Source: Octopus vulgaris
Lineage: Eukaryota
Assembly: GCA_951406725.2 (NCBI GenBank)
Contig: OX597828.1
Coordinates: 37,448,001 to 37,512,000, forward strand
DNA length: 64,000 nt
Direction: 5' to 3'
Shown here: positions 22,781-63,808 of the stretch, piece after piece
Layout of the letters: the number at the start of each line of letters is the position of its first letter
Numbering within the stretch: the first letter of the stretch is position 1
Program-made: the position numbers and the translations under genes
The notes under the pieces: model-generated
Told to the model about the DNA's origin: nothing
Database searches by the model: none
Seen by the model: the letters and a program-made list of their open reading frames with translations, nothing else

Positions 22781-22970
22781 GGGAGAGTTAACGAAAAAAA
22801 ACAAAAGAAGAAGACAGGTGGTGTACAAAACAAACAGATGTATTAGTATAACGCTCAGGAATAGAAAAGTCTTTTACGTTTCGAGCCTACGCTATTCTAC
22901 AGAAAAGGACACAGAAAAAACAAGGAGGGAAAAAATGTGTGTAGTGGCTAACGATCTATTATGGCGACTC
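22779..22970 (-). mobile_element. ~190-bp (TA)n-inserted element with a minimal hammerhead-like motif (22870-22907)
   Basis: Minus strand CUGUAGA A uAGC-GUAG-GCUC GAAA CG UA aaaga. Homologous to 49235-49435, 57085-57250 and 63620-63808. Confidence 0.75.
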
Positions 22971-24940
22971 ATGTATATATATATATATATATATATATAT
23001 ATATATGTGTGTGTGTGTGTGTTAGTGTCCGACAGAAAGAGAGAGAAAAGAGAGAGAGAGAGAGGGAGAGAGAGATGGATAGTTAAACTCGTACATTACG
23101 GAGGAAAAAGAAATGATCACACACGCACACACACAGAAGATAGCCTGAAGGTTGTACTTAATGGGCAGGTTGTATGCCACTTAAACAAAGGGGCCCATTT
23201 TCTATTTAATATTAAAGTAAAGACACCCATGGAGACACACACTTGCACCTACACGCATGCATGCAGTCATCCATTCATCCATCCATCCATCCATCCATCC
23301 ATCATGCATATATTTGATTTGAAGTGATATTCATATAATAACATGCATGGCGGAGGAAGACAAGCGATAGAGAGAGAGAAAGAGACAGACAGAAAGAGAA
23401 AGGAGGAGATTGTGGGAGGAAGAAATGAAGAATGAAAGAGAGCGAGAGAGAGAGAGAGAGAGATAGAGAGAGAGAGAGAGAGAGAGAGAGAGAGAGAGAG
23501 AGAGAGAGTGTAATACAGAATGAGAAAAGAACTATGAGAGTATTTTGCGGAGATTTCTGATTGTCTTCCAATCCGGGTTGAACACAAAAGCCATCACAAA
23601 GGCTTTCACTGCAACGTAATTCGTCCTGAAGTTGGAGTATTTTGATAAGATTCTGTCGATGTTCTTAGTGGACATCATTTAATGTGATTAGCCGCGATAA
23701 ACTTGTGTTGGGACACACAATCTCTGGAGATTTTCCTCTTCTATTATGTTGCGTTGGTAACATAGTTAAATGCGTTCGCTGTAATGAACGAACGGTCAAT
23801 AGCCTTCCTGTTATAAAATATGGATTTATGCTTCTGTCAAACATCTAAAATACATCTCTTTTCCTTATTGGTTTTTTTCCTTTCTTAATCCATAATACGC
23901 CGTTCTTCTCTCTGGTTCTTTATCGTTTTCCACGTCTCTCAATTTCCTACTCCCCACACGTGTCTCTCTTTCTCTTTCTCTCTCTTTCTCTTAAACCCTG
24001 TTTCTCTCATTTCTGTCTCTTTACATTTATATTTGCCGAGACAGACGTATACACGCAGAGAAAATAGTACAATTCATACATAATTTTGTGCCTGCCTCTC
24101 TGTGTGTGTTATAGGAAGCTGAAGCTTCTTGAACCGTTACCTTTAGTTTCACGTTGCCGATTATTTAAACGATTGTAGGCAAAAGTAACTAATCATTTAT
24201 GAGAAACTATTCCTGAAAACATGGTTAATCATGCAAATTAAGGAAGTACATAGGATACTGCAACTTTTAAAAACATGGATTCTAGCAACATAAGCATACA
24301 TCGCATTTTCAAAATGTCGCATCACCACTTCCCTCTCCAGATATAAAAGAAGCAAAAATCGTTTCGTCCTTTATAGAACACGCATTCATTTGCATGAATT
24401 ACTCCAGGAGATCGGGTTATTATATCACAGATAATTAGATTATCTCATTACTAGCTTAACACCAATTTTTAATGCCTACTAACTTTTCACTCATCCGGTA
24501 TACATACATACATACATACATACATACATACATACATACATACATATATATATATATATATATATATATATATATATATATATATATATATATATATATA
24601 TATATATATATATATATATATATATATATATATATATATATATATATGTATATATGTATGTATGTATGTATGTATATATATATATATATATATATATATA
24701 TATATATATGTATGTATGTATGTATGTATGTATATATATATATATATATATATATATATATATATATATATATATATATATATATAAAATAAATATAAGA
24801 GAGTGGTCACTATATGGCTCACTCTAGCACCAGTTAATCCAAAAGGTTTCAACCACAAAAATACATATTTCCCATGAAAGTCAGTACGATTGTTAGCTCA
24901 CACGGACAGGGCAAATAAAAAATAACAAAAATACAGATTA

Positions 24941-25022
24941 TTTTGGGACAATTGTTTCGCTATTAATGAATTAAATGTAATTTTACTTACAAAAAAATCC
25001 ACTTGTAGCTCGTCAGCCAAAA
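24941..25022 (-). ncRNA. Type I hammerhead ribozyme motif (canonical core)
   Basis: Minus strand: uuuugg CUGACGA gcua...uagc GAAA CAAUUG UC ccaaaa. Stem I is 6 bp, stem II is 4 bp with a long loop, stem III is the palindrome ACAAUUGU, and the cleavage site is GUC. Within a ~410-bp element (24787-25200) between (TA)n tracts. Confidence 0.85.
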
Positions 25023-25485
25023 CTATCTGGATGAAATCCACTCAATCACACGCCAGATTTTACCATAACGATAAATACGCGTGTGGTTCAATTGATTACA
25101 TCCGACGTTATAATTCAAATGCCCCAACTAACATCGCGCCAAACTTTCACGGAAAACAAATACAGCATTTAGAAATAAATGCAGCATAATTATAATTATA
25201 CATATATATATATATATATACATATATATATATATATATATATATATATATATATATATATATATATATATATATATATATATATATATATATATATATA
25301 TATATATATATATATATATATATATATATATATATATATATATATATATATATATATATATATATATTGTTATATTTCGGAATGGTCATATTGCCAGTTT
25401 AGCCAATAAAAACACACGCACTATATATTTGGTGTTATTTTGCTTCAGTGATATTTATTTTTTACATTAATCTTAATCTTATTTC

Positions 25486-25530
25486 GGCCAAAGTTCTTTC
25501 GTCACACTCCTGTGACCGCATCAGTGGTCC
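25486..25530 (-). ncRNA. Variant hammerhead-like motif in the PLE 3' region (left arm)
   Basis: Exact reverse complement of 30155-30199. Confidence 0.5.
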
Positions 25531-26055
25531 TTTGTTTTCTTCTCACTTACTTGTGTCTCTCCTTACTAACCGTCAGCCATTTTGTATTTCTATTGTATGT
25601 CTTCATTTGCGCATGCTTATATCTCTATGTGCGTCTATGTTTATTTAGTGTGTGTGGGGGGGGATGCCTGTAATATTTGTATCTTCTGGTTATATACATT
25701 CTTGTAATTTGTATTTTGTTTTTGTTGTTGTTGCTTTTGTTCTAATTTTATTCATGTGTTTACATCCACCCATTATTATCATTACATATGCTTGTATGTA
25801 TGTATAACAACAATATTAGTAATAATAATAATAAATCTAATCGAAAAAAAAAAAAAAAAAAAGAATATACATATACATATATATATATATACATACACAT
25901 ACATATACATATATATATATATACATATATACATATATACACACACATATACACATATACATATACATATATATACACATATACATATATATAGATATTC
26001 ATTTTTATTTCTTTAATTACCTGTGTATTTATTATGTTTGCAGGATCCACTATTG

Positions 26056-62080: not shown

Positions 62081-62162
62081 TTCCCTATGGCCATTTCAGG
62101 GGTATATTATTGTGTTTAAAGCACTAGGGTGCATCACGATAATAACTCCTTCGTCAAGGGAA
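62081..62162 (-). ncRNA. Type I hammerhead ribozyme motif (C3U variant) in the PLE 3' region
   Basis: Minus (sense) strand: uuccc UUGACGA agg...ccu GAAA UGGCCA UA gggaa. Stem I is 5 bp, stem III is the palindrome AUGGCCAU, and the cleavage site is AUA. Confidence 0.78.
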
Positions 62163-62403
62163 GAATAGAGAGACAGACATCTTCGCGTACTAGGCTTAAC
62201 ACAATATTAATATTATATTGTGTGCTTTCTTATTGAAGCAGTCATGCTCAGACGAGCCCAAAAGAAAGAATTAAAGCAGTAAAAAAATTTTTTTGTAAAG
62301 CAGTAGAGAAAAAAAAACAAAAAGAAACATGGGTGTATTAAATTAAATTAAATTAAATCAAATTGAACTTCCGTGGTTTCAAACGCTGCAAGAGCTAAAT
62401 TAT

Positions 62404-63240
62404 TTATTTTCTACGACTTATTTTATTTCTATACACTTTTAAGAATGTAGAAGAAAATTTATGGATACAAAAGGGAATCACGTCAGTAAATTTATTCAAA
62501 ATGTGCGGTCCATAACACCTAACGATGGTAAGGGATTCCCTTATGCACAGCTTACACTTGTTAATATTTCCCTTGAAATTTGGAGTTTTAGAGATAATGG
62601 ACCATTCTAGATAATAATTCTTATTATTTTTCTTCAAGTTGTGTATATGGGATGCAAGTGTTGTTGAATTATAATATTTATCGTTAGAAAATGAGCTCAT
62701 ATGTGATCTATATCTAGCCTTAAAATCTACTGTGCTACCTATATAAAATTTATTTAACTTATCCTCGTCCTTGACTACACATTTATATATAACGTTAGTA
62801 ACTAGACAGGAACCATCTAAAGGACATAATTCGGGGTTTCTACAATTACATTTCTTTCCGGGGCCTTTCCTAGTTTTATTTCTATTGTTACCTTTACATT
62901 TTGTGTCTCCAGTTCTCGACAAGTTTCCCTCTTTCATTCCATCAAATCTTCCCTTATTACATGGGTTCGATAGATCCGGTAAAGGCAGACTGTTTGTACC
63001 ATTGGCATTAGGCGTTACAAAATTATTATACGCAGTTCCTTGGTCATCCTCAAAAGAACTTTTCCAGCTGTTCCGCCCAGCAAGCTTGCTTCTATTGATT
63101 GATGCAATACTCGAAGCAAAGTTAGGCATTACAGAGTAAGAGAACTTGATCGTTGACTTGTTGCAAATGCTATAGTATTTATGATTCTTTGGGAAGTTCT
63201 CCTTCAGAATTCTAAAAAACATTTTTGGTAAGTTCCTTAC
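62404..63240 (-). pseudogene. PLE linker + GIY-YIG endonuclease (open frame, 5' part lost)
   Basis: FPKNH....NKSTIKFSYSVMPN, CNCRNPELCPLDGSC..NVIYKC...FYIGSTVDFKARYRSH...STTLASHI...CKLCIRE...LNK...C.HK. The N-terminal ~48 aa of the listed ORF are microsatellite read-through. Confidence 0.87.
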
Positions 63241-63619
63241 TCTCTCTCTCTCTCTCTCTCTATATATATATATATATATATATATATATATATATATATA
63301 TGCATTAGTGTAAGTAATTATCTGTATACGCGGATGATTCTTTGAAATGGTGTTTCTATATACGAATGATATCGTTTTATACATCAGCGTAAGAATTTTT
63401 ATGAAAAGCGTATTAAAAATACTGAAGCTTTAGAAATTGAAATATAAATTCTGGTTCTTCTTTTAAGAAAGATTATTATTTTTCTCACGCAGGTGGTGGA
63501 CGTAGATCTATATGGGAAAATTTTATCGCTCTTTCTCTTTTTTTTCTCTATCTCATTACAGTTTTTGTGTATGTGCGTGTGTCTTTGTATGTGTGTGCAT
63601 GTATGTATATGTATATGTC

Positions 63620-63808
63620 CGGCCTTCGCTATGATAGATGGCTAGGCACTATACATTCTTTATTTTCTCTCCTTGTTTCTTTCTGTGGAAGAGCGTAGGT
63701 TCGAAACGTTAAAGACTTTTTCACTTCCCGGGCGTTATACTAATACATCTGTTTGTTTTGTACACCAGCTGTCTTTATCTTTTGTTTTTTTCTTTTTTTA
63801 ATTCACCC
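63620..63808 (+). mobile_element. (TA)n-associated element with a minimal hammerhead-like motif (63678-63715)
   Basis: ucuuu CUGUGGA A GAGC-GUAG-GUUC GAAA CG UU aaaga. A G-U pair keeps stem II, and the site is GUU. Confidence 0.75.

Follow-up and report, generated by a model that had tools for sequence, protein, structure and literature searches.

Does the amplification of a mobile element favour a weakened ribozyme? The question is raised by a repeat family in 64,000 nucleotides of Octopus vulgaris DNA (contig OX597828.1, positions 37,448,001 to 37,512,000; hereafter the window). Four copies of a non-coding repeat of about 190 bp carry what is probably a real hammerhead motif, with the layout of the minimal hammerheads of Penelope elements and with U in place of A at core position 6 (U6). 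An earlier annotation made from the letters alone (the sequence-only reading) had placed four 38-mers in the window, and all four were recovered at the same coordinates and on the same strands, as follows.

49299 to 49336, forward strand: hammerhead motif; stem I 49299-303/49332-36, C3 49304, U6 49307, N7=C 49308, A9 49310, extra A 49311, stem II 49312-15/49320-23, G12 49324, ACGU 49327-30, H17 49331; predicted cut after 49331.
57183 to 57220, reverse strand: hammerhead motif; U6, N7=U; predicted cut after 57188.
22870 to 22907, reverse strand: hammerhead motif; U6, N7=A, stem II broken; predicted cut after 22875.
63678 to 63715, forward strand: hammerhead motif; U6, N7=G, G-U pair in stem II, H17=U; predicted cut after 63710.

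Alignment of the four motifs left 32 of the 38 columns invariant. As had been claimed, position 6 was U in all four copies, position 7 was A, C, U and G in the copies at 22870, 49299, 57183 and 63678, respectively, and H17 was A, A, A and U in the same order and never G. The elements follow one another in the type I layout (stem I, core, stem II, GAAA, UH, stem I), and in the 49299 copy stem II consists of four pairs closing a GUAG loop, followed by GAAA, CG, U16.1 and H17. Over the nine pairs of stems I and II, 34 of 36 cells in the four copies were paired, and G10.1-C11.1 was G-C in three copies. Both stem II changes described previously were seen, namely a G-U pair in the 63678 copy and the loss of G10.1-C11.1 in the 22870 copy through a change of G10.1 to U. 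The proposed UCUUU strand of stem I was present in the other copies and absent from the 22870 copy, where stem I starts CUUUU and contains one G-U pair and one unpaired end.

We compared the motifs with the consensus published for Penelope minimal hammerheads, which is CUGANGAH with an extra base after position 9 and G10.1-C11.1 (Cervera and De la Peña 2014, PMC4209133; this and the other articles are cited from excerpts), and found all elements present except A6. The extra A before stem II occurred in all four copies, as reported, but it is standard for this class rather than the oddity it had been taken for, and the palindromic stem III ACGU, also present in all four, is an ordinary feature of the class (PMC4209133). 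Only U6 is unusual in the motif. The same excerpts describe a palindromic 15.2-16.2 element, weak activity as dimers only and a U3-A8 variant, and the three CUGU strings in the part of the supplement that was searched all lay outside cores.

A structural scan of both strands, in which one core mismatch was allowed, returned five motifs, namely three of the four family copies and, within a Penelope-like element, an unrelated motif that occurs twice; in the control, shuffling the window 20 times gave 0.05 matches per shuffled window. The 22870 copy was missed because its G10.1 is U, so that stem II fails. An Rfam scan of the element alone returned no hammerhead and three chance matches at E up to 10, and the scan of the whole window gave only microsatellite-driven microRNA-type matches among the 150 of 521 matches listed. 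The statement that CUGANGA searches would miss this family was borne out, since U6 is fixed, and Rfam misses it as well.

The four motif-bearing repeats were 76-92% identical to each other. A profile search (nhmmer) built from five copies, with the copy at the window edge kept out of the profile, gave seven family members in the 64 kb, the four motif copies and three remnants.

22780 to 22972, reverse strand: full-length family copy between two (TA)n tracts.
63617 to 63810, forward strand: full-length family copy, with a (TA)n-like tract before it and (TA)n after it.
49247 to 49433, forward strand: family copy that lacks about 15 bases at its 5' end and adjoins (TA)18 at its 3' end.
57085 to 57250, reverse strand: 5'-truncated family copy with its 3' end at (TA)n; identity to the 49247 copy, 92%.
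30499 to 30648, forward strand: sister-subfamily copy, most of the hammerhead missing; position 6 reads G.
31491 to 31527, forward strand: sister-subfamily 5' fragment of 37 bp, flanked by (TA)n tracts and 89% identical to the 30499 copy.
63866 to 63994, reverse strand: divergent relative at the window edge (nhmmer E=4.8e-7) with the 3' half of the hammerhead.

The decayed copy and the edge-cut relative had both been anticipated and were located at 30499-30648 (+) and 63866-63994 (-, E=4.8e-7); the 31491-31527 fragment is an additional member. In the 30499 copy about 23 bases are gone between two AAGA repeats of the motif; in the edge copy loop II and the 3' strand of stem I differ, and position 6 falls beyond the window. 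The association with (TA)n also held, as the four copies, the decayed copy and the edge copy all have their 3' end in (TA)n. The copies at 22870, 63678, 30499 and 31491 have a (TA)n-like tract directly at their start or no more than about 10 bases from it, and those at 49299 and 57183 are 5'-truncated; the fixed 5' start suggests a discrete short unit. No open reading frame (ORF) was found, in agreement with the earlier reading, the longest ATG-initiated stretches being 24-58 amino acids. The predicted cut site lies inside the unit, with about 85 bases upstream and 100 downstream, and the copies are unbroken across it. The 49247-49433 (+) and 57085-57250 (-) copies are inverted, lie 7.8 kb apart and are 92% identical; they could pair in a long transcript and may be a substrate for A-to-I editing. 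An intron 3' end downstream of the motif (a branch-point-like ACTAAT with a pyrimidine tract) was considered and rejected, there being no AG common to the copies.

A short unit of this kind could also be a tRNA-derived short interspersed element (SINE) or a TA-targeting miniature inverted-repeat transposable element with a chance hammerhead look-alike. SINEs make up 11.7% of the O. vulgaris genome (PMC13282606), the flanks are TA, and the GGCTCGAAAC stretch resembles a B box. However, ARAGORN predicted 0 tRNA genes, Rfam gave no tRNA match, and on inspection the B-box-like letters came without a T-arm helix. No terminal inverted repeats were seen by eye at the unit ends, no dedicated inverted-repeat search having been run. 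Nor does this origin account for the rarity of the full motif in shuffled windows or for the pattern at position 7, and we consider it extremely improbable.

We evaluated variation outside the window with assembled contigs of 4 of 24 listed public runs, which were aligned to 49200-49436 at ≥80% identity, with differences listed from 2%. The runs were X1 (organism A, 13,628 contigs), X2 (organism B, 8,987), X4 (organism C, 12,825) and X8 (organism C, guessed to be RNA, 825), and thus carry three species labels; none of the listed runs containing the stretch is recorded as RNA. All shares given below are depth-weighted contig sums and not copy counts. Position 6 showed no other letter at ≥2% in any of the four runs. 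In contrast, position 7 was C, U, A or G in shares of 32/31/24/13% in X1, 23/46/23/8% in X2, 42/32/20/7% in X4 and 24/33/31/12% in X8, and of the 26 variable places listed over the stretch it alone had four alleles. In none of the four runs was a second letter listed for C3, U4, G5, U6, A9, the extra A, G10.1, C11.1, G12, A13, A14, A15.1, G16.2, U16.1, H17 or loop II. Among the remaining motif positions, C15.2>U (4-8%) leaves the dimer helix with a U-G pair at this site, G16.2>A being unlisted, and C>U in inner stem II (0.5-5.5%) likewise keeps a U-G pair, while U>C at the outermost position of stem I (7-23%) breaks the end pair and G>U in stem I (1-6%) breaks its pair. Rare-variant shares were lower in X8 and X2, which coverage can explain, and were not used.

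The sequence-only reading had attributed part of the position-7 variation to CpG decay, which turned out to explain little. In X1, C7>U reached 31% against 2% for G8>A (0.2-2.1% across the four runs), and a CpG in the flank (49402-03) decays evenly on both strands (2.7%/2.7% in X1). Given this asymmetry and the presence of two transversions, the position-7 alleles are, as judged from these contigs, differences between amplifying source copies and not post-insertion CpG decay.

Depth peaked on the motif at 1.5-12.6 times that of three chosen flank bins, and contigs diverged at the edges of stem I (loose ends 362/380 in X1, 234/304 in X2, 309/389 in X4 and 19/38 in X8). Beyond stem I the loose ends match the 30499 copy and so belong to a sister subfamily, in which the motif is unchanged but the flanks differ; conversely, the flanks of that decayed copy match the loose-end consensus of hundreds of contigs in which the core is intact. 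The motif is common to subfamilies with diverged flanks under three species labels. A free position 7, a kept core and a motif shared by flank-diverged subfamilies form a hammerhead signature of selection, and it is on this signature that we regard the motif as probably real. A crude bracket from X1 put the copy number at 7,000-220,000, and extrapolation of the window density would give about 175,000 copies in 2.8 Gb. The run contigs and the window copies both support the earlier description of a non-coding family that is abundant, dispersed and associated with (TA)n and that carries a minimal hammerhead of the Penelope type.

We propose that this family is a high-copy non-autonomous unit of about 190 bp that is copied into (TA)n by a Penelope-like reverse transcriptase (RT), and that its fixed-U6 motif is a slowed ribozyme that cuts only as a dimer or with protein help, an explanation to which we give an even chance. 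A source locus, probably head-to-tail, would be transcribed, and, by analogy with other Penelope elements, an RT-GIY-YIG protein would bind the RNA, nick AT-rich DNA and begin reverse transcription near the 3' end. The inserted copies are unbroken across the predicted cut site, have a common 3' end at (TA)n and, where they are not full-length, are truncated at the 5' end, so that the template was uncut at that site or had been re-joined. U6 is predicted to lower catalysis and to let U4-G5-U6 pair into an 'off' fold of the monomer. In the predicted fold these bases pair with A15.1-C15.2-G16.2 in a three-pair helix with the ACG of stem III, and the probability of the pair between position 6 and A15.1 was 0.41, 0.96, 0.69 and 0.02 across the four copies; with A6 it was 0.00 in every one. 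Occasional dimer- or protein-licensed cleavage in tandem source transcripts may then release unit-length RNA, and for this reason selection on source copies would keep the rest of the core. With the cut site in the interior of the unit, a ribozyme that cut quickly would destroy its own template, and a slowed, self-inhibited one would accordingly be favoured.

A bolder form of this proposal is that the motif represents a catalytically competent U6 class in which U6 locks the monomer 'off' and dimerization, a Penelope protein or Mn-like ions switch it on, the ribozyme driving what would rank among the most abundant short retroelement families in octopus genomes, through circular or multimeric RNA, while staying invisible to all CUGANGA-based searches. 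We advance it tentatively, as a possibility with the probabilities against it. The earlier label 'retrozyme-like' suits the family in that the unit is short and non-coding, but 'solo pseudo-LTR-like unit' (LTR, long terminal repeat) fits better because the described non-LTR retrozymes carry canonical hammerheads in tandem arrays. There were no tandem arrays of units among the seven window members, and one X2 contig (depth 19.7) ran from the 3' end of one unit into the start of a second across a shared TTCG.

Several results weigh against the slowed-ribozyme explanation. Two-sided compensatory changes were found in none of the nine pairs among the four window copies, which are few sequences. 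Variable columns numbered 6/38 in the motif against 30/95 in both flanks (window copies, one-sided p=0.048) and 20/76 in the 3' flank alone (p=0.15). In the runs, an X1 minor allele of ≥5% was seen at 12 flank places against 4 in the motif, so that the point invariance of the core is not significant by itself; what carries the argument is position 7 together with the CpG asymmetry and the core common to the subfamilies. Loop II was as invariant as the core, as simple shared descent would also give, and at ≥80% identity on assembled contigs more divergent cores are under-counted and cores with several changes possibly left out. Part of this would also suit a neutral relic, in which a founder broken by A6U was amplified for other reasons, the core being kept by shared descent and position 7 being a mutational hot spot. 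The contrast in conservation is weak within the window, compensatory changes are absent among the four copies, most flank sites are invariant in the runs too, stem II is broken in one of the four copies, and the motif is lost in the 30499 copy. A relic does not, however, predict four alleles at the one position expected to be free and at none elsewhere, the asymmetry between C7 and G8, or a motif common to subfamilies with diverged flanks under three species labels, and we regard this account as very unlikely.

The folding results and the published activities also count against the proposal. The motif folded no better than shuffled sequences (z 0.06 to 0.85), the hammerhead dimer (-14.7 kcal/mol) was less stable than the cofold minimum (-22.4), and in its own sequence context the 63678 copy fails to adopt the off-fold. 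In the published assays, changing position 6 is strongly deleterious (PMC3088659, PMC7151607, PMC9901934). The natural A6C hammerhead of phage Bcep176 has an observed rate constant below 0.1 per min and is slow in Mg and rescued by Mn (Perreault 2011, PMC3088659), an engineered A6C cut at 3.55e-6 per min at 0.3 mM Mg compared with 0.3 for A6 (Naghdi 2020, PMC7151607), and in a saturation mutagenesis study the activity of single CUGA-turn mutants was low (PMC9901934). Even minimal hammerheads with A6 cut weakly (PMC4209133).

Such values would suit a hammerhead that has lost catalysis and is retained, in fold and sequence, for recognition by a Penelope or other RNA-binding protein, U6 having abolished cutting and thereby protected the template. 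In favour of this alternative, beyond the deleterious effect of position 6 changes, insertion took place in vitro without hammerhead cutting (PMC11167929), the copies are intact across the cut site, and loop II is invariant too, though catalysis should not fix it. On the other hand, the sole free position is the catalytically free position 7, with G8, G12 and the U16.1-H17 cut site kept, a catalytic pattern that a mere binding site need not follow. We judge a dead fold rather unlikely.

A further difficulty for the slowed-ribozyme explanation is that no coding element in the window, both Penelope-like remnants included, shares sequence with the short family; the two remnants were accordingly rejected as direct sequence donors. 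The 190-bp unit might instead be the pseudo-LTR or 3' end of an autonomous U6 Penelope family and its copies solo or truncated ends, which would be compatible with active or dead catalysis. Minimal hammerheads normally lie in pseudo-LTRs, and most are single motifs from truncated elements (PMC4209133), a preprint argues that animal retrozymes derive from pseudo-LTRs (Li, Clavereau and Pollet 2026, 10.64898/2026.07.22.740005), and the octopus copies combine a common 3' end with 5' truncations. Against this, in four window copies the start falls on one point, give or take about 10 bases, directly after (TA)n, and the loose ends before 49247 are TA-rich, with an agreement of 0.54-0.74 and no common upstream ORF among the matches listed. 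This origin appears unlikely to us.

The Penelope-like neighbours are the following.

25368 to 28204, reverse strand: Penelope-like element (RT, cysteine linker, GIY-YIG) inserted at (TA)n.
28235 to 30370, forward strand: inverted partial Penelope-like copy, 97% identical to the 25368 element; young.

The RT ORF of the first (26612-28204, -) is 99% identical to a predicted Octopus vulgaris protein, which confirms the window as octopus DNA; its RVT_1 and GIY-YIG matches are weak and below Pfam cut-offs, its linker is C-x4-C-x2-C, and the inverted pair lies between long (TA)n tracts. Craig et al. suspect such a linker as the cause of the microsatellite bias of Neptune elements (PMC8557442). In a 2026 annotation, Penelope-like elements account for 6.83% of the O. 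vulgaris genome in 190 families, and the excerpted supplement of that study makes no mention of a ribozyme (PMC13282606). The window element, having no sequence in common with the short family, is evidence that a helper of a suitable type exists and not evidence that it acts as one. The inverted pair has a hammerhead-like motif of its own at 25524 (-) and 30161 (+), in which core position 9 is C, stem II has six pairs and stem III is not palindromic. As the two copies come from one insertion, this may be a variant of the family or a private mutation. A short AGCTTACCGAAGAC-type tandem marks the 25368/28235 junction, and an A-run frameshift separates the RT and GIY-YIG parts.

Elsewhere in the window, a second GIY-YIG remnant of a different type (62150-63240, -) is followed by a two-unit tandem at 61365-62148 (units of 370-415 bp, 85% identical, with internal (TA)n), at the start of which a half-hammerhead-like UUGACGA breaks off. 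The 3' part of an ORF of the long interspersed element type lies at 1544-2317 (+), and its zf-RVT match falls short of the cut-off. Three further families of abundant short repeats, one of them in a 184-bp tandem, are probably SINEs.

6566-7319, 47417-47833 and 4523-4760: short repeat family.
9377-9855, 36011-36385 and 39031-40160: short repeat family.
11308-11745, 17479-17962, 21037-21379 and 58856-59648: short repeat family.

Searches for the exact family motif gave 0 matches in viral contigs and 0 in metagenome contigs. A looser pattern found two metagenome loci, L001 and L002, with canonical A6, the same layout and unrelated flanks. They lie at 546-578 (-) and 1915-1947 (-), respectively, in plant-metagenome contigs that have in common a repeat of about 650 bp (70% identical), which is probably from a eukaryote in the sample; a short ORF of L002 had no Pfam match and no match to the window GIY-YIG protein. 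A generic U6 pattern gave at least 120 viral loci; among the matches listed, seven pass a loose stem filter and one has both stems of ≥3 pairs, and these loci were treated as chance.

The family matters in two respects. Hammerhead descriptors treat A6 as invariant, and a U6-fixed family of thousands to perhaps 10^5 copies would escape them, so that ribozyme censuses of animal genomes may be undercounts. It also offers a natural experiment on whether a Penelope hammerhead has to cut or has only to fold: among the amplifying copies, three different changes arose at position 7 and no reversion at U6.

We met no U6 hammerhead and no octopus hammerhead in the literature searched; Lünse 2017, Repbase, Dfam and the library of PMC13282606 lie outside that search and may already contain the family or its U6 variant. 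The minimal-hammerhead work of Lünse, Weinberg and Breaker 2017 was covered as cited in PMC6765202, and the excerpts of PMC6765202, PMC13725137, PMC13481778, PMC11014351 and PMC10886601 contain no U6 case. Among known systems, the octopus motif shares with Penelope minimal hammerheads the short stem I, the extra nucleotide between 9 and 10.1, G10.1-C11.1, the palindrome without a stem III loop, the U-rich 5' flank, the mostly single dispersed motifs and the predicted dimer requirement; it differs in U6, in the fixed 5' start and in having no linked ORF found in the window. With the non-LTR retrozymes, whose motifs are canonical and arranged in tandem (Cervera and De la Peña 2020, PMC7229834), it shares a short non-coding unit, a type I hammerhead, likely mobilization by Penelope elements and dispersed monomers, which are also described there. 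Retrozymes have canonical efficient hammerheads, loop-loop contacts, tandem arrays and circular RNAs, whereas the octopus family has a minimal motif with U6, dispersed window copies and one head-to-tail junction. As far as its sequence goes, the family thus departs from Penelope minimal hammerheads in lacking A6 and from retrozymes in lacking the canonical motif.

The phage Bcep176 hammerhead resembles it in having a natural pyrimidine at core position 6, and its activity is low but real and better in Mn than in Mg. It is a single prokaryotic motif with C6, while in the octopus U6 is fixed in a massively amplified animal retroelement family. For the mechanism, the closest model is Poseidon of Anolis carolinensis, whose protein cuts AT-rich DNA, starts reverse transcription inside the RNA and uses uncut RNA as template, and whose hammerhead cuts only with protein and is dispensable for insertion in vitro (Frangieh 2024, PMC11167929). 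Poseidon is autonomous, and its hammerhead overlaps the ORF start, in which it differs from the octopus unit; its AT-rich target, internal start of reverse transcription, protein-assisted hammerhead and uncut RNA template are the features on which our proposal is modelled.

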